From contig JACDHS010000008.1 in NCBI GenBank assembly GCA_013820875.1, positions 277-64,276 of the forward strand: DNA of 64,000 bases. Direction: 5' to 3'. Source of the stretch: Verrucomicrobiota bacterium. Its GTDB lineage: Bacteria > Verrucomicrobiota > Verrucomicrobiia > Limisphaerales > JACDHS01. Below are positions 43,632 to 51,652 of this stretch, in pieces. Within the stretch, counting starts at the first letter, position 1. Each line of letters opens with the position of its first letter. The notes beneath the pieces were generated by a model that saw only the letters and a program-made list of their open reading frames with translations, had not been told where the DNA came from and did not search any database. Made by a program: the position numbers and the translations under genes.

Positions 43632-45017
43632 TTAGGGGCTTCTTGGCCGTGTCAGGAGAGAACCAATCGCGGCGAGGCCCAGTGCGAGCGCGCCCAATGC
43701 CGCCACAGGTTTGGCAAGTGTCAGCGCTTTGGTTTTCGTCGAGCCATACTGCAGTCGATGGCGGGTGCGCCGTTCAAACTGTTCCCATTTCATGATGGCT
43801 TTTCCGGGCATTTGGACGCCGAGCCCTTTCATGAGTTCCGGCATGGCATTGCGCAACACGGGATGGCCAGGAATGAAATAAACCCGGGAATCGTTTTTGT
43901 ATTGGGGCTTCGCGGAATCGTCAAAAACAACGTAAGGCCCTTCCTTCAGATGCTCTTCAAAAGCGGGATCATCCGCCTCTCCAATCATGATTGTCGGAGT
44001 TCCACGGGCCCAGATCACTTTGTTCAGATCGCCCCGCGCCAACATGCTGTCGAGCACGCTTTTCACATGGCCTATGGTTCCGGCAAGCGTGACTTTCTTT
44101 CCGACAATGAAATTGATTGGCAAATAATCGAAGCCCTCGTGCCCTGGCCAGGCAGGAAACGAAACTTCATCGATGGGAACTCCGCGGAATTCAATCGGCT
44201 CGCGCACTCCCAAACCGCGTTCCTCCGCTTCGCGTGCAAACTCCAGCTTCCGCCAATCGCGCTGCAGCAATCGCGCAATCGCCACATCCGTCGCCACGGG
44301 ATCCGTCGAGGCCAGGATGCAACCACACCAGCGCGGCACATTCGCGATCGGACCGTCACCTTCGCCGCAAATCAGCGCATCAACAACGCACAAGGTGGGC
44401 CGAGTCACCGTCATAATGTCCATGAACCGGCCGATCATGTCTTCATCGCCGTGGTTGTGTTCGCGCCAGTTCTGATTCACCGCGCCGACCCAATTTTTTA
44501 ACGCGCCGCTGATCGGCTCGATGTGATGATTTTTCGCCTTCGGCACATTGATGATTACATCGGCATTGAGCAGCGGGGTTGGCAACGGAGCATGATTCAC
44601 CACGCGTCCATCTGGAATTTGAACGGTTCGGTTCGGCACATCATCGCTGCCGAGGTCGATTAGTTCTGCGCCTTCCTTCTTTGCGACGGCAGCCATACCG
44701 GTAATCTTCATGCACTCGAGGGAATTGAAGAACCCGCCGCTTGATTCAGCGACGATGACCCGGCGGGCTTTCGCTTCTTTGCAGAGTCGAATAAGCGCGC
44801 CGACCACGAGCGGATCCGTCGTGCAACCTTCTTCCGCGGAATAATAAACTGTTTGATTGGGTTTAATCAGCACGGTAGCGCCGGGTGGAATAAATTGTGA
44901 AATCCCGCCGATCTCCAGCAGTGCCGCTTCGACCAGCGCCAATACCCGCTCTTGTGAACGATGCTTTTCTTTTGTATGCGCGATTGCAACCACAGCCCCA
45001 CCTTCATTTTTCATCAT
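43632..45017 (-). CDS. DUF362-domain (putative Fe-S) protein
   Basis: VLIKPN, TTDPLVV, IINVPKAKNH, GALKNWVG, VDALICGEGDGP, ASTDPVATD; start reassigned to ATG 45017. Confidence 0.88.
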   Translation of the reverse strand: MMKNEGGAVVAIAHTKEKHRSQERVLALVEAALLEIGGISQFIPPGATVLIKPNQTVYYSAEEGCTTDPLVVGALIRLCKEAKARRVIVAESSGGFFNSLECMKITGMAAVAKKEGAELIDLGSDDVPNRTVQIPDGRVVNHAPLPTPLLNADVIINVPKAKNHHIEPISGALKNWVGAVNQNWREHNHGDEDMIGRFMDIMTVTRPTLCVVDALICGEGDGPIANVPRWCGCILASTDPVATDVAIARLLQRDWRKLEFAREAEERGLGVREPIEFRGVPIDEVSFPAWPGHEGFDYLPINFIVGKKVTLAGTIGHVKSVLDSMLARGDLNKVIWARGTPTIMIGEADDPAFEEHLKEGPYVVFDDSAKPQYKNDSRVYFIPGHPVLRNAMPELMKGLGVQMPGKAIMKWEQFERRTRHRLQYGSTKTKALTLAKPVAALGALALGLAAIGSLLTRPRSP

Positions 45018-45298
45018 GCCTCCCTGTTTGATTTCGCTGCCATCGTCGTGAAGCAGCATCACACCAATGCATTCAAATTCGCCGCGAGGTACCCTGTTGT
45101 CTATAGGGACTGCCAACGTAATCTGCGGATAATTGGAATCCGCTATCCGAAATGGGTAGCAGACGAGGTGACGAGGCTCCATTTAACGACGTTGGTCAGA
45201 ACTTCCTGACGTCAGCTGCTACTTCGGTGATCTAGCGTATTATGCAAAGGATAAGGTGAGCAACTGAAAGCCTGTGAGATTCCCCAGTTCGTCAACAA

Positions 45299-45805
45299 TT
45301 AAGGATCGGATGAACAGCTGACACGTCGATGTTGATTACTTCTAACCGAACGGTTTCGAGCAGTTCGGGCAAAGGCTTTGAACATTTTATGAACAGTGTT
45401 TGCCTCGTCCTTTAGATCGTGCTCCCAGATACGAACGACTGTCCAACCCGCTTTACGAAGCGCTCGGCTCACGGCGCGATCTCGCTCCATATTTCTTTCC
45501 AGTTTTGCCGACCAAAAAGCTGATCGTGTCAATGGGATATGTCCATGCCGTCGACAGCCGTGCCAAAAGCAACCATCCAAGAATAACGCTAGACGCTCAC
45601 GTTTCCAGACGAAGTCTGGGCGTAGGTGCCCATGTTGAACCGGTGGATTCGGTCCACGCAATGTCAATCGGATATGCCGACGCCATCCTCGCATCTTATT
45701 GGCGCGAAGGATCGATAACATGCGTTGCTCGGTACTCAGGTTGCCTTGCGAACGAATGGAAGCCATCAATTGTGAGCGCTTCGAGGTCGTGAAGATGTCT
45801 GCCAT
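45299..45805 (-). CDS. vsr: Very-short-patch repair endonuclease
   Basis: MADIF...RSQLMASIRS...TE, RPDFV, FLDGCFWHGC, WSAKLERNMERD, WEHD. Confidence 0.93.
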   Translation of the reverse strand: MADIFTTSKRSQLMASIRSQGNLSTEQRMLSILRANKMRGWRRHIRLTLRGPNPPVQHGHLRPDFVWKRERLALFLDGCFWHGCRRHGHIPLTRSAFWSAKLERNMERDRAVSRALRKAGWTVVRIWEHDLKDEANTVHKMFKAFARTARNRSVRSNQHRRVSCSSDP

Positions 45806-45823
45806 TGTGTTCTGGATTGTAAA

Positions 45824-46963
45824 CTAACAAACCAAAGCGAATTCTATAAAATCGGCATCCCTTTGCTTCCATGCCTCTTCGTGTTTCTCAAAGAATGCGC
45901 GTTGCTCTGCAGAACATTTTAAGCCTCGATTCAACAGTTTGAAAATTTTATTAATGTAATAACGAAATGCAGGCTCAATTGTAGCTTCATCATAACCGTG
46001 GGTATAGATGCCGAGTTTCGGACAGGCAAACAGCCAGGCGTTATCTCCACGATGTTTTATGAAATCTCCCCCTTGCTGTAATGGGCCAAAATCTTTCAAA
46101 AGAAATTGATCCAGTTCAGTGGTGTACTGTTTTGGGGTGTTGCCGGCTTTCTCCACAACGCGAATTTCTTTTTCATCGATCATTTCTGCAGTGAGGAGAT
46201 CGCCTTCGTCGAGTATCGGTCCCTGAAATAGTAAACCGACCGACGCTGCCTCGTTAAGGCGATTGAATACAAATAAAAGCCGAGGCACGTCATCTAGATT
46301 GTCTGTTTCAAGTAACTTTTCGAAAAAGTCTTTTTGAACGTCGCTAAGAGTAGATTGAAATGCTGGCATCGAGACGGCGGTGAAGTGGGTATTCTCGATT
46401 TCTTCAGAGCTGGATTTACGTGATCGAGGCACCAGCAAGGCGAACGTTGTAAAATTGTTTGGGTTCGCAGTTTTCTTTTCCAGAATTGAATACATTCCAT
46501 CATCTTGAATTTGGTCGGGGGCGATCAAGGCAGCATCTTGCATCGGATCTTCGATGAAGGTTTTCAAAGCTGCGACGGTTGATTCGCACGGTTTTAGGGC
46601 AGCTTTGAATTGCTTAAGAAAATGCGAGCACTGTTGTTTTGCTACTTTTACACAACAAATCCGTTTGATCTTACTAGGATCCGACCTGCGCGTTATGAAC
46701 CAGAATTGGATGCATCCCGGCCAAATGTCAACCAATCGACATCTTCGTTCCAGAAGGTGTTCCCAAACATTAGTATCCCGGATCTCACCTTTATGAGAAT
46801 TCCACACGGGGGTAGCCAAAGGTTTGCAATCTTCGACTAGTAGGTCGCCAATTCTTGCAAATGCTGTATATGAATCAATATCCGCGTCTGGGAAGCGTTT
46901 GATTACTGCAAGACCAGTCTGGGATGTCCGTCCTTCATATGACAGGATAGAGGGGATGTTCAT
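45824..46963 (-). CDS. Uncharacterised AT-rich protein in the methyltransferase operon
   Basis: 379-aa ORF whose ATG overlaps the upstream TGA (ATGA at 46960-46963); no family recognised. Confidence 0.8.
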   Translation of the reverse strand: MNIPSILSYEGRTSQTGLAVIKRFPDADIDSYTAFARIGDLLVEDCKPLATPVWNSHKGEIRDTNVWEHLLERRCRLVDIWPGCIQFWFITRRSDPSKIKRICCVKVAKQQCSHFLKQFKAALKPCESTVAALKTFIEDPMQDAALIAPDQIQDDGMYSILEKKTANPNNFTTFALLVPRSRKSSSEEIENTHFTAVSMPAFQSTLSDVQKDFFEKLLETDNLDDVPRLLFVFNRLNEAASVGLLFQGPILDEGDLLTAEMIDEKEIRVVEKAGNTPKQYTTELDQFLLKDFGPLQQGGDFIKHRGDNAWLFACPKLGIYTHGYDEATIEPAFRYYINKIFKLLNRGLKCSAEQRAFFEKHEEAWKQRDADFIEFALVC

Positions 46964-48102
46964 TTCTTCGCCCCTTTTTTTATGCATTTTGAACATACCT
47001 CAGCGATCTGCTCTAGCAGTTCTGAAACTTTTGATGTTATCTCTTCGGCTGGAAGCCCCTTGATCCAAGCTAAAAATAGTCGTGCTTTGTCCTCTGCTGC
47101 GCGCAACGCCCTTTTCTCATTCATCATTGCTACCACCTGCTCCAACTTTGTTCCTTTCGATTCCTTGAGTAAGCTCCACGCTTCTGAATCCCGTCTTGCG
47201 CGAATCATTGGTTCAACCTGTTTCAGGTTTTGAAACCCATCTTGTTGCGCCATCAAGTGAAAAAACATTCTTTTGGTATCAGGCAACTCGGTCGCGTTTA
47301 ACTGAGACCGCCCTTTCATTGCTTTGTTTCGGAATTCCCAGAAGTAGACGAATTGTTCTTCTACGACTTGGCGGTGTTTATAGTGTGCATCCTCCGTTTT
47401 CGATGATGAAACAAACTCGTTGGCGATTTGGAGTGTCTCAAGCCATTGGTTAGCTATCGATTCGGACATCGCAAATACTTCAGCGATTTCAGCGAGTGCC
47501 TTTTCATGTGTTAGCTTTGACTTAAGGCAAGCAGTGTAATAGTCCTCGACAACCTTGGCCTTGGCCCCAAACGGCCAAGGTATTTTAAGGTCTGGAACAA
47601 AATTTGCCTCTGCGAGAATTTTGAGCCGTTGTTTCTCATTCAAGTCCGTTGTTTTAATCACCCAAACTGGTATGCGATCTAATACTTGGGGCTGTTGCTG
47701 CTTTTTTCGTTCGAATCGCCGTCTCAGCAAATGGCTGGCAAAAAAGCGACGGTTTCCATCCAGTAGCGTTGCATCATCTAATATGATCATTGGAACCCGC
47801 ACTCCATTCCTTTCTATTGAGCGGGAAAGGCTGTCGAGTTCGTGAATTGGGAGGCTGGTGACAAAATCCACCACCCTTTCAAAAGGTATCTCGGCAAGCT
47901 TCTTTTTTTCTATGCGCTCGAGGCGATCAAACGTGAATTTGGTTCGATCGTTTTCTGGCCAGTAGGTGATTTTCGACAAAGGCAGTTCGGTAGGATATAC
48001 AGTTATCCATTCATCGTGGAACAGCTCTGTTTTCGGCTTCAGCCCCTTTGTAGATACGATAGCAGAATCGATCTTTTTCGTTAGGGTTTTGAGTTTTGAC
48101 AT
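46960..48102 (-). CDS. ParB N-terminal-domain protein with HTH-like segment
   Basis: LSRSIERNGVRVPMII...LLDGNRR; later LAEIAEVFAMSESIANQWL helix-turn-helix pattern. Confidence 0.78.
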   Translation of the reverse strand: MSKLKTLTKKIDSAIVSTKGLKPKTELFHDEWITVYPTELPLSKITYWPENDRTKFTFDRLERIEKKKLAEIPFERVVDFVTSLPIHELDSLSRSIERNGVRVPMIILDDATLLDGNRRFFASHLLRRRFERKKQQQPQVLDRIPVWVIKTTDLNEKQRLKILAEANFVPDLKIPWPFGAKAKVVEDYYTACLKSKLTHEKALAEIAEVFAMSESIANQWLETLQIANEFVSSSKTEDAHYKHRQVVEEQFVYFWEFRNKAMKGRSQLNATELPDTKRMFFHLMAQQDGFQNLKQVEPMIRARRDSEAWSLLKESKGTKLEQVVAMMNEKRALRAAEDKARLFLAWIKGLPAEEITSKVSELLEQIAEVCSKCIKKGAKK

Positions 48103-48150
48103 GTATTTAAATCCAGTTTTCCTAGCCTAACTTCCCGCGCATCAAAAAAA

Positions 48151-49479
48151 TCAGCACACAGGACGTATTTTCAACGCGGCAAATCCCTTGCGTAGGCCAC
48201 CAGCTTTTCCCAACCAAGCACAGTCCGCTTCCCTGCCAGTATTCTCGCGCATGAAATAGGGATTCAAAGTCGTGCGTGGCCGATTTCTTAATTTTTCCAA
48301 AATCTCACGATTTGCACACAGAACTTCACCGCAATAGCGAATTTTATTCCTGCTGCTTATCATTCTTCGAATTGCCGCCCCGATTGCACTACCTAGCCCT
48401 ACTGGCGTGGCGTTGCCGATTTGTCGATATTGCTCGCCAATTGCGCCTGCAAAACGCCATTCATCGGGAAAACCTTGGATCCGAGCGCACTCTTGGACGC
48501 TTAACGGTCTGTCTTCAGCAGGGTGACACAGCATAGTTGCGCGACTTCTAGGGTTGTTGATGATTGTCGGTGCAGGCTCATTCCATGCTAATCGTCGTAA
48601 GAAGCCACATCGCCCTCCCCAAGAATGATAAGCACCACCGATTGCTTGGGCTTGAAGCTCAGTCGGCAGGGCTCGCCAATTTGCTCCAGCAGGAATGCGT
48701 CGCAAATATTCGAGATTTACTTCATTGAAAGGCTGATAAACAGGTTCATTTTCATTCAAATCGGCAACTGCAGTCTGAAAGTCCACCCATGGGTGCAGGC
48801 CATCGCTGCCATTCTCAGCATGAGTGGCCACTGGCCAGATGCTTGAACCGTCGCGTGCCCCTATAATAACGAAACGTTCTCGTTTTTGCGGAACTCCGAA
48901 ATCGGCCGCGTTTAATGTGCCCCAAGTAGCGCAGTAGCCTGTTTTTTCACAGAAAGCTTTTAAATCCTCAAGGATACGCCGGAAAGCAGAACCATATTCC
49001 TCGGACGGCTTTAGAGGCGGAAAACCTGGGCCACGTTCTGCTAAAGGTCGATGCTTCAGTGCTGCAGATAAGAGCCCCTTCACGTTTTCAATAACGAAAT
49101 AGCGTGGTTGAAGCAATGCGACTGCATTGAACATAATGTCGAACCCTGAGGCTCTTTCGTCCTTCAAAGAAAGTCTCTTGCCAGCAGTGCTAAACGGTTG
49201 GCACGGTGGAGCACCGGCCAAAATACCTATGCTTCCGACCTTAAGGCGTGCCTGTTTTATGATTTTTGCGCACGCATATTCAACGTTGTTTTCCGTCAGT
49301 GGTTCGGAGAAAACAACCAAGGGGCGTCCTTTCTTTGCGTGCTGGTTCAATTCAATTGTTTCTAGGGCGGCCTTATTGCAATCGGCAACGGCGCGAAGAG
49401 AAAATCCGGCAGCTTCCAAACCGAGATCTAACCCTAGCGCACCAGAAAAAAAAGATACAATTGTTTGCGGCTTTGACAT
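48151..49479 (-). CDS. DNA (cytosine-5)-methyltransferase
   Basis: FFSGALGLDLG, PPCQPFS, ENVKGL, QKRER, RIQGFP, QIGNATP motifs. Confidence 0.96.
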   Translation of the reverse strand: MSKPQTIVSFFSGALGLDLGLEAAGFSLRAVADCNKAALETIELNQHAKKGRPLVVFSEPLTENNVEYACAKIIKQARLKVGSIGILAGAPPCQPFSTAGKRLSLKDERASGFDIMFNAVALLQPRYFVIENVKGLLSAALKHRPLAERGPGFPPLKPSEEYGSAFRRILEDLKAFCEKTGYCATWGTLNAADFGVPQKRERFVIIGARDGSSIWPVATHAENGSDGLHPWVDFQTAVADLNENEPVYQPFNEVNLEYLRRIPAGANWRALPTELQAQAIGGAYHSWGGRCGFLRRLAWNEPAPTIINNPRSRATMLCHPAEDRPLSVQECARIQGFPDEWRFAGAIGEQYRQIGNATPVGLGSAIGAAIRRMISSRNKIRYCGEVLCANREILEKLRNRPRTTLNPYFMRENTGREADCAWLGKAGGLRKGFAALKIRPVC

Positions 49480-49900
49480 TTATTTGTTGGTTCTAACAGA
49501 ATCGGTTCCCATCATAGTTTTAAAGTAAATTGTGGATCAACGTTGAGGAAAAGCACGTTTCCTAGTCATTTGTCTTCCAGTTTGTTGGGTTTCTTGTTGC
49601 TGGGCAAAGCGTCATTAGAATTTACGCTTTCTCGTTCAGATGGTCACGCTGACCATACATAGCAGGTTTTACGTATCAAAGATATTTCCATTGATAAACT
49701 CTGGAACGGAGTGTTTAGCGCCTTTGGCATTTTATAAGTCCCAAAATCAAGCCTACAGGGCCGATAAATGCCAGGAGCGGGGCAGGGATGAGATTGTTGA
49801 AAATGTACGGGTTGTTTCCCGAGCTCTACATGGGACTGCCGGGTTGTCCGACGGAATTGAACTTTGAGATTGCCATTCTTTTTAGGCGGACTGGTTGCCG

Positions 49901-50143
49901 CTACTTCTTTCGCTTGAAAAGGAAGCCTTGAGTTTTTTCGAAAGAAAAAAAGCCAACAGCTTCCCAGCCATCATCGCCCAACCTGCTAAGCCGGTCAGGA
50001 TCAAGATGGGATGAGCCGCTCCGGTAGTAGGTCGTATACTCCCATTGCGTGCGTTTCTCTTGGACAGCAGCGATTGTGAGGATCAGAAGGGCACTCAAGA
50101 CTGCGCCGGTTACCAGGCTTCGAATGTTTACGTTATGTTTCAT
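49901..50143 (-). CDS. Small exported DUF4177-like protein
   Basis: Signal/TM followed by QWEY...LGDDGWEAV...FLFKRKK. Confidence 0.75.
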   Translation of the reverse strand: MKHNVNIRSLVTGAVLSALLILTIAAVQEKRTQWEYTTYYRSGSSHLDPDRLSRLGDDGWEAVGFFSFEKTQGFLFKRKK

Positions 50144-50496: not shown

Positions 50497-50888
50497 ATTT
50501 CTCGGGGAAAAAGGTCTGATTCACGACCGGATGGCCATTTTTTTCGGCGGAAAAGTTCAGATCAATAGGTGTTCATGGCTTTTTCCGCCGAAAAAAATCA
50601 AGTGCATAAGGTGATAACGACTTTTTTCGGCCGAAAAAACGAAATCAACAGGTGTTCATGACTTTATCCGGCGGAAAAAACCATTGTCATAAGGTGTTCA
50701 TGACCTTTTTCGCCGGAAAAAACCGATGTCATAAGGTGATAACGACTTTTTTCGCCGAAAAAAACCAAATCAATAGGTGTTCATGACTTTTTCCCGCGAA
50801 AAAAACCGATGTCATAAGGTGTTCATGACTTATTTCGCCGAAAAAACCCGAATCAACAGGTGTAGGTGACTTTTTTTGCGGGAAAAAA
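50497..50888. repeat. 41/42-bp-period array of 8 units with T/A-tract palindromes
   Basis: AGGTG at 50567, 50609, 50650, 50692, 50734, 50775, 50817, 50858; unit approximates AGGTGTTCATGACTTTTTTCGCCGAAAAAAACCGATGTCATA. Confidence 0.93.
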
Positions 50889-51312: not shown

Positions 51313-51652
51313 GAAAAACGCGTATTTCTCGTGATTTCCCTTCGGGCGGACAGGTGAATTACGTAATTGACGTGTTTTCATGAAGGGAAATTCCGTGAAT
51401 TACGTAATTCACGACTCCGCCCGACGGGCGAGGTGGTGAATTCTGTAATTCACGTGTCCGCCCGACGGGCGGAGAGGCCAAATACGTAATTCACGTGCTC
51501 GCACGACGGGCGGAGACGTCAATTACGTAATTCTCGTCCTCGCCCGACGGGAGAAGTGGTGAAATACGTATTTGTCGTGTTTTCCTGAAGGGAAACTCCG
51601 TGAATTACGTAATTCACGACTCCGCCCGATGGGAAATCACGAGAAAAACGTG
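51313..51652. repeat. 41-bp-period array built on the palindrome GTGAATTACGTAATTCAC
   Basis: TACGTA core or variant at 51319, 51360, 51401, 51442, 51483, 51524, 51565, 51606; linkers are a second hairpin (CGCCCGACGGGCG or TTTCCTGAAGGGAAA). Confidence 0.95.

Follow-up and report, generated by a model that had tools for sequence, protein, structure and literature searches.

What, if anything, does the work of a restriction endonuclease where a DNA methylase gene is accompanied by two genes that encode no recognisable nuclease? The question is raised by four genes at positions 45299-49479 of a 64,000-nucleotide stretch of DNA from a Verrucomicrobiota bacterium (Limisphaerales; JACDHS01), assembly GCA_013820875.1, contig JACDHS010000008.1, positions 277 to 64,276; this whole stretch is hereafter called the window. 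The genes encode a C5 cytosine DNA methylase, a ParB-like protein with a helix-turn-helix (HTH), a protein with the prephenate dehydratase (PDT) plus ACT fold, here called PDT-like, and a Vsr-type mismatch endonuclease. We found that the first three recur side by side in widely separated lineages, and with moderate confidence we read them as a restriction-modification-like module in which the ParB-like and PDT-like proteins would form the restriction side. The cassette in the window is laid out as follows, with the basis of each assignment in brackets.

49479-48151, minus strand: C5 cytosine DNA methyltransferase, 442 aa (PF00145, TIGR00675)
48102-46960, minus strand: ParB/Srx-fold protein with HTH, 380 aa (AlphaFold2 (AF2) model, Foldseek, hhalign)
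46963-46960, minus strand: ATGA overlap of the ParB-like stop with the PDT-like start (read in the sequence)
46963-45824, minus strand: PDT+ACT-fold protein, 379 aa (PF00800, AF2 model, Foldseek)
45805-45299, minus strand: Vsr-type T:G mismatch endonuclease, 168 aa (PF03852, PADLOC Vsr)

Distribution and linkage of the module

Exact-protein look-ups, together with a search through 185,579 species genomes, yielded 21 independent loci, the window included, whose gene content was established by hidden Markov model searches of six-frame open reading frames (ORFs). The C5 methylase, ParB-like and PDT-like genes were adjacent in 20 of the 21, which disposes of a doubt attached to the first-pass annotation of the window, that the genes might not occur together elsewhere. 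The hosts span about ten bacterial phyla and one archaeon, a member of the Altiarchaeota; among the bacteria are Verrucomicrobiota, Kiritimatiellales, Gallionellaceae, Nitrosovibrio, Methylotenera, Pseudomonadales, Fibrobacterota, Bifidobacteriaceae, Margulisbacteria and Polarisedimenticolaceae. The module is nonetheless rare and patchy, with 12 loci in the 185,579 species and a single one in 401 genomes sampled from the window's phylum, a spread that fits horizontal transfer. Searches by tblastn of 72,556 plasmids and 50,697 phages returned no match to the PDT-like protein and a single partial match to the ParB-like protein, on an Exiguobacterium plasmid; the module was absent from both collections.

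Vsr was encoded in 10 of the 21 loci, in varying positions, and is accessory to the module, whose core does not include it. The four-gene system originally proposed therefore holds in part: all four genes occur together in nine loci, with an order in locus L023 identical to that of the window.

The ParB-like and PDT-like genes were closely coupled, the distance from the stop of the one to the start of the other falling between -8 and +14 nt in all 19 loci examined, and the pairwise distances of the two proteins were correlated across loci (r = 0.97, Mantel p = 2e-4). Methylase distances correlated weakly with those of either partner (r ~0.24-0.33), and the methylase gene ran in the direction of the pair in about half of the loci and convergently to it in the others. 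By these comparisons the methylase appears to be exchanged more freely than its two partners. The M and R units of restriction-modification systems switch between tandem and convergent orientation, and the flips and weak correlation of the module's methylase resemble that behaviour.

The locus gene tables indicated that the module's neighbours are often defence or mobile genes, including Tn7-like transposition genes, a type III restriction-modification system, a type IIG enzyme, a TIR protein with IS110, HicAB, and conjugation genes of a type IV secretion system (T4SS) with ArdC and HipA. ParA was absent from every locus gene table examined.

The single exception to three-gene adjacency, L009:7128-9107, comes from a Pseudomonadales metagenome-assembled genome in which the ParB-like gene is gone, its place after an ABC permease gene taken by non-coding sequence, and the PDT-like gene is shortened at its N-terminal end; the convergent Vsr and methylase genes are intact. 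Judged from these gene remnants, L009 is a decaying copy of the module. The decay of restriction-modification systems usually removes the restriction gene first, and the pattern in L009, where the pair side erodes while methylase and Vsr persist, fits that course.

Other loci depart from the usual layout in other ways. Two C5 methylases flank the pair in L011:563-6077 and L015:1788-6816, with a divergent methylase upstream and the module's usual one, in convergent orientation, downstream, an arrangement that recalls two-methylase systems for asymmetric sites. A heterodimeric endonuclease of the BbvCI/Bpu10I type, considered on account of these two loci, was unsupported, as neither subunit resembles a PD-(D/E)xK nuclease. 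In L004/L005:3418-9191 the pair directly follows a complete Sau3AI-like system composed of a Vsr, a 471-aa endonuclease with a MutH domain and a C5 methylase (412 aa) that bears no relation to the module's usual one. L024:7856-10215 carries a far more divergent pair, whose ParB-like and PDT-like members are 27% and 21% identical to those of the window, with a methylase that is still 51% identical to the window's and a Vsr between pair and methylase; its ParB-like member gave a weak match to PADLOC PD-Lambda-5_A (1e-3).

Comparison with known defence systems

The cassette had been described at first as an operon without a recognisable restriction endonuclease, and the lack of such an enzyme was borne out, as neither partner is a known restriction endonuclease by profile, sequence or fold searches. 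Sequence searches of PDB, PHROGs, PADLOC and NCBIfam with both partners gave nothing informative beyond weak ParB and PDT matches. Neither protein of the window matched any family in PADLOC-DB v2.0, where the methylase matched the generic models DrmMII, DruM and MTase_II, and the signature non-methylase parts of known PADLOC systems (DISARM, Druantia, Dpd, PD-Lambda-5) were not found in the window cassette. A full-text literature search found no description of a methylase combined with ParB-like and PDT-like proteins; the sources name these proteins generically only. The idea of a candidate undescribed system thus survives insofar as the module is recurrent and lies outside both the PADLOC families and the literature found, and is amended insofar as Vsr is not core and the 379-aa protein has a known fold.

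The closest comparison is with type II restriction-modification systems that carry a C5 methylase and Vsr (EcoRII/Dcm-Vsr-type and Sau3AI-type). Like these, the module combines a canonical 5-methylcytosine methylase, whose target-recognition region is conserved, with a Vsr that may be absent, and forms a compact, mobile, patchily distributed cassette with a flipping methylase in defence islands. Unlike them, it fills the place of the endonuclease with two co-evolving proteins, one of ParB/Srx fold with an HTH and one of PDT+ACT fold, which have no recognisable nuclease domain.

The ParB-like protein

The identity of this protein emerged from structure more than from sequence. The window's copy had no PF02195 (ParB_N) match at E <= 0.1 and weak matches to PHROGs ParB-like families (3e-6) and TIGR00180 (0.06), and 16 of 36 sampled members of its family matched PF02195 at E <= 0.01, the best at 4e-4. 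Over 269 clusters of homologues make up the family, with a uniform length of about 365 aa. The AF2 model (pLDDT 91.8) had as its best solved matches in Foldseek the pNOB8 ParB N-domain and Thermus Spo0J, at a probability of 1.0, and also matched phage ParB proteins in BFVD. When aligned by hhalign to the host's own canonical ParB, the family profile scored 92% probability, pairing LLDGNRRFFA with LIAGERRWRAA (Box II), AEANF with IENLQ (Box III), and the segment AEIAEVFAMSESIANQWLETLQIA with the ParB HTH. Together with the retained nucleotide boxes, the Foldseek and hhalign results agree with the initial assignment of a ParB-like protein with an HTH. Its motifs lie in the window at the following positions.

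47955-47941, minus strand: Box I-like motif ENDRT
47760-47746, minus strand: Box II motif DGNRR
47613-47599, minus strand: Box III-like motif AEANF
~47499-47422, minus strand: HTH
47352-47320, minus strand: invariant helix FVYFWEFRNKA

Invariant across the family are ENxRT, DGNRR, E165 and N167, AEANF and the helix FVYFWEFRNKA. The Glu of the Box II motif GERR, which in canonical ParB has a role in CTP hydrolysis (PMC13229309), is invariably Asn in this family (GNRR), and because of this substitution the protein may bind nucleotide with slow or absent turnover.

In its N-terminal nucleotide-binding domain followed by an HTH, and in its recognisable boxes I-III, the protein resembles the chromosomal and plasmid ParB CTPase clamps such as Spo0J and KorB, and like KorB with KorA it has a small dedicated partner. 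It differs from these clamps in the lack of a ParA and of a parS-type array common to the loci, in its GNRR Box II, in its C-terminal half, and in being tied to a methylase gene instead of a replicon. A second set of relatives comprises ParB/Srx proteins of conflict and modification systems (DndB, DpdB, the DUF262 domains of GmrSD/BrxU and SspE, Osa, and the ParB activators of phage 5mYOX dioxygenases), with which it has in common the ParB N-domain fold, the GxRR phosphate-binding box, a neighbouring DNA-modifying enzyme and a dedicated partner protein. From these it is set apart by the lack of a fused HNH or DUF1524 nuclease and of any PADLOC model match, by a partner of PDT+ACT fold, and by a modification enzyme that is a plain C5 methylase. 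The 5mYOX-associated ParBs, unlike the module's protein, have no ParB-type HTH (PMC13229309).

The PDT-like protein

The 379-aa protein had been taken for an unknown effector, and structure prediction changed that view: it is not without a known fold. It matched PF00800 at 6e-13 (49.4 bits against a gathering score of 25.2 bits), and its AF2 model (pLDDT 91.7) had as top Foldseek matches the prephenate dehydratases 3mwb, 6vh5 and 2qmw and the acylase GqqA (E ~1e-13 over ~290 columns). The core of the protein thus has a PDT+ACT fold with a remodelled cleft and is followed by a family-specific C-terminal domain. The cleft motifs and this domain are placed as follows.

46924-46913, minus strand: cleft motif SQTG
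46804-46784, minus strand: cleft motif WNSHKGE
46633-46625, minus strand: cleft motif QCS
46465-46442, minus strand: cleft motif NPNNFTTF
45824-46135, minus strand: family-specific C-terminal domain, residues 277-379, ~100 aa (alignments)

When the family profile is set against that of PDT, PIWNSHEGE corresponds to PIEN, TQCS to GQC and NPNNFT(T/S)F to ENNVTRF. The cleft has kept its Ser and the TRF Thr; an invariant Trp stands where PDT has its substrate-binding Glu, and Thr or Ser where it has the TRF Arg (roles of these residues in PDT after PMC8192741). NCBIfam PDT equivalog scores were far under their cut-offs (34 against 219), and the host genome has a separate, genuine PDT on contig C28 that scores 205 bits against 51 bits for the module protein. 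Because the key residues are replaced and a genuine PDT is encoded elsewhere in the genome, the cleft appears to be under selection but re-specified.

In the C-terminal domain H304, C314, H322 and G323 are invariant, and E330, R334 and C350 nearly so. A profile of this domain searched against 1.84 billion representative proteins retrieved 45 proteins only, all of the same architecture, with no fusion to a known effector domain. A strand-strand-helix segment at the C-terminal end was considered as a candidate His-Me finger.

The protein shares with prephenate dehydratase (PheA PDT+ACT) and GqqA the two-lobed PBP-type catalytic fold followed by ACT, along with the cleft Ser and the Thr of TRF. 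It differs from both in the change of Glu to Trp, the change of the TRF Arg to Thr or Ser and the extra family-only C-terminal domain of ~100 aa, and in being encoded always after a ParB-like gene and beside a methylase, in a host that has a genuine PDT of its own. Since PDT+ACT is a ligand-binding or enzyme scaffold, the protein, as modelled, looks like a sensor, regulator or small-molecule enzyme at least as much as an effector.

The methylase and Vsr

The methylase matched PF00145 at 4e-49 and TIGR00675 at 146 bits and carries the full canonical set of C5 motifs (FxGxG, PCQ, ENV, QxRxR, GN(A)xP).

49449-49432, minus strand: motif FSGALG
49209-49189, minus strand: motif PPCQPFS
within 49479-48151, minus strand: motifs ENVKG, QKRERF, QGFPDEW and GNATP
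48624-48592, minus strand: target-recognition motif SWGGRCGFLRR
48282-48259, minus strand: C-terminal tail motif RPRTTLNP

The target-recognition segment SWGGRxGFxRRLxW is conserved across the module methylases, and a C-terminal tail (GxVxC...RPxTxLNP) is present in most loci. Alignment of these shared elements suggests one common specificity and, in the tail, possibly a docking element. This tail, of ~60 aa, is conserved only where the methylase is linked to a ParB-like gene. Among solved structures, eukaryotic DNMT1 catalytic domains match the methylase best (~88 bits, mainly over residues 281-374) and rank above M.HaeIII and M.HhaI; these PDB relatives are too distant for the recognition sequence to be inferred from them. 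The window's Vsr matched PF03852 at 42.8 bits (cut-off 27 bits) and PADLOC Vsr at 7e-15, and scored 92.8 bits against TIGR00632, slightly below the cut-off of 97.85 bits.

A sister cassette with an SNF2 helicase

Two loci, L025:6001-12077 and L026:6001-12479, carry a sister cassette for which no PADLOC description is apparent. Their methylases share 48-50% identity with that of the window, as well as the SWGGRxGFxRR motif and the RPRT(I)xNP tail, and adjoin an HhH-GPD glycosylase gene, alongside a convergent gene pair. The first gene of this pair encodes an SNF2 helicase of 585-593 aa that matches the ZorD, DpdE and DrmD models, and the second a protein of 523-530 aa that contains the motif LLDGNRR and aligns from end to end with the ParB-like profile (88-122 bits). 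A 235-aa sigma-70 region-4-like protein is also encoded in L025. As the partners of the sister methylases are an SNF2 helicase and a longer homologue of the ParB-like protein, comparison of the two cassettes points to the ParB-like protein as the constant partner of this methylase clade, with the PDT-like protein and the SNF2 helicase as apparent alternatives.

There are likenesses here to DISARM class 2 (DrmMII), Druantia (DruM) and Dpd (DpdE), as the window's methylase scores well against the DrmMII and DruM models and the helicase of the sister cassette matches the models ZorD, DpdE and DrmD. The module nevertheless lacks DrmA, DrmB, DrmC and DrmE, DruA-E, and DpdA and DpdC, and the cassette in the window has no helicase at all.

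Genomic setting in the window

All four ORFs are intact and lie head-to-tail on the minus strand; 48 nt separate the methylase gene from the ParB-like gene, and vsr follows the PDT-like gene after 18 nt. The PDT-like gene has an alternative, longer start at an ATG at 46996; homologues begin at the ATG at 46963. GC content is 0.45-0.50 over 45000-50000 and 0.52-0.58 on the flanks, a modest dip that accords with horizontal transfer. The first-pass annotation had noted four same-strand genes in a stretch of lower GC and an ATGA coupling of the ParB-like and unknown ORFs, and both are evident, the former in the ORF layout and GC profile and the latter directly at 46963-46960. Pattern scans for promoters and terminators around the module gave matches no commoner than in shuffled sequence. 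It is plausible that the four genes form one operon.

The same annotation had placed the genes as an interruption of a host metabolic cluster, for which we found no support: the flanking gene for a DUF362 protein (516 aa, window 43632-45182) has no orthologue in 30 related genomes, so that the comparison with them showed no empty site, and there is no homologue at E <= 1e-30 even in a genome of the same genus. Because this flank lacks homologues in relatives, the variable region may be larger than the four genes.

On the other side are two tandem arrays with a 41/42-bp period that contain palindromes, at ~50561-50888 (TRF score ~300) and 51354-51636 (~200). A role as loading sites of the ParB-like protein was considered and rejected, as no comparable arrays occur near the module in 18 other loci, and the arrays are probably a feature of the window's genome.

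What the module may do

The reading we prefer, at about even confidence, is that of a horizontally mobile, restriction-modification-like system for telling self from non-self, with the ParB-like/PDT-like pair as its restriction side. It is favoured because the module is compact and mobile, its methylase flips and is exchanged more freely, T:G repair is optional, it lies in defence islands, and the pair is what erodes in L009. Also in its favour are the linkage of the three genes, the coupling and co-evolution of the pair, the recognition motif that the module methylases have in common, the sister cassettes, and the conserved fold and nucleotide boxes of the ParB-like protein. In such a system the C5 methylase would mark one fixed motif of the host, and Vsr, where present, would repair the T:G mismatches that arise from deamination of 5-methylcytosine. 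The ParB-like protein would engage unmarked DNA in a manner gated by nucleoside triphosphate (NTP), as a clamp, as an NTP-regulated nickase, or as both. The PDT-like protein would bind the ParB-like protein and might either gate it through a ligand held in the remodelled cleft or cause damage through its C-terminal domain with its His, Cys and Glu residues. The analysis shows the gene content, folds, motifs, linkage, co-evolution, context and rarity of the module; the defence function, clamping, the sensing of unmethylated DNA, NTP gating, physical contact within the pair, the replacement of an endonuclease by it and the assignment of any DNA cutting to one of its members are things we infer. 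NTP-regulated nicking by some ParB/Srx proteins is cited in two reports (PMC12839542, PMC10853773), which offers one route to DNA damage that requires no classical nuclease.

Several observations weigh against this reading. No nuclease fold or motif was found in either partner with Pfam, NCBIfam, PADLOC, PHROGs, PDB sequence search or Foldseek, and the PDT+ACT fold is a scaffold of metabolic enzymes and ligand-binding proteins with no known DNA-acting example. Box II reads GNRR and not GERR, so that NTP turnover may be slow or absent. The presumed recognition-helix residues of the HTH differ among homologues while the recognition region of the methylase stays conserved. The main misfit is that L004 and L005 have no module-type methylase within 8 kb, and since their pair adjoins an unrelated methylase, a strict rule of one methylase and one specificity is not universal.

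A bolder version of the restriction-modification-like reading, which we think rather improbable, is that restriction proceeds without a nuclease or with one of a new kind. The ParB-like protein would load on unmethylated DNA and spread or lock there under NTP control, and the PDT-like protein would be either a ligand-controlled lock, as KorA is for KorB, or a new DNA-acting enzyme that uses the Trp-bearing cleft, as a binding site for a nucleotide or base, and the C-terminal domain.

Among the rival explanations, the one that survives best, though we consider it unlikely, is a DNA-modification or epigenetic pathway, in which the ParB-like protein would activate or target a DNA-acting enzyme, as its relatives do for phage thymine dioxygenases and for DpdA, and the PDT-fold protein would alter or read methylated or other bases, with a further modification or an epigenetic readout as the result. 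We know of no PDT-fold enzyme that acts on DNA. ParB homologues are required activators of DNA-modifying enzymes (PMC13229309), and DpdB is a ParB-like ATPase for dPreQ0 insertion (PMC12839542). The PDT-like cleft, remodelled under strong selection, has the look of a catalytic or ligand-binding site; in HisG a cleft of the same PBP type holds AMP (PMC8192741), and the PDT fold has evolved acylase activity in GqqA. The pair beside an unrelated C5 methylase in L004 and L005 would also fit a dependence on 5-methylcytosine and not on one motif. The frequent linkage to Vsr or HhH-GPD, however, implies that 5-methylcytosine remains unaltered in the DNA, and the defence-type SNF2 helicase that the sister cassette has in the place of the PDT-like protein fits a motor or effector better than base chemistry. 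The defence-island and mobile context is compatible with either reading.

Less likely than a modification pathway are the two other rivals. The pair might regulate the expression or activity of the methylase, for instance as an outsized controller protein that responds to a metabolite via its PDT/ACT domains, or stabilise the cassette by killing cells that lose it, as a control or addiction module with no anti-phage role, a proposal that we rate as quite improbable. KorB and DndB are ParB-family regulators, and such a role would suit the HTH of the ParB-like protein, the PDT/ACT and PBP-type domains, which are classic small-molecule sensors, and the conserved methylase tail, which is specific to ParB-like-linked cassettes and could be a docking site. 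Yet the ~750 codons of the pair far exceed the needs of known controllers, the two proteins co-evolve with each other and not with the methylase, which is often convergently transcribed, and a regulator is not easily recognised in the SNF2 helicase that stands in for the PDT-like protein in the sister cassette. Chance adjacency of a housekeeping prephenate dehydratase and a partition ParB to an orphan methylase and Vsr, as might be supposed from source annotations that label homologues "prephenate dehydratase" or "ParB/Spo0J partition protein" and from the above-threshold Pfam PDT match, is effectively refuted: those identities are rejected given the host's genuine PDT (C28; 205 vs 51 bits) and canonical ParB (C9; 118 bits), the lack of an adjacent ParA and the replaced PDT substrate residues, and chance is excluded by a linkage that holds across phyla in 20 of 21 loci, by the stop/start coupling of the pair and by its co-evolution (r = 0.97).

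Implications

The module was missed by the annotation libraries and models searched because it is confined to uncultivated lineages. If the cassette discriminates self from foreign DNA, it would be a new system of the restriction-modification type, built on a ParB nucleotide switch and a PDT/ACT-fold protein, and it would be categorically new if its restriction side works without a nuclease. On the bolder version, a metabolic-enzyme fold never seen acting on DNA would silence or damage foreign DNA, and the SNF2 sister would be a motor-driven version of the same device, with methylases whose nearest solved relatives are eukaryotic DNMT1. The sister cassette suggests a modular family organized around one ParB-like core and one methylase clade, in which the swappable partners make the system tractable. 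If the restriction-modification-like reading is true, ParB biology would extend past segregation and the activation of modification enzymes, and the PDT fold would gain a role in nucleic-acid conflict.

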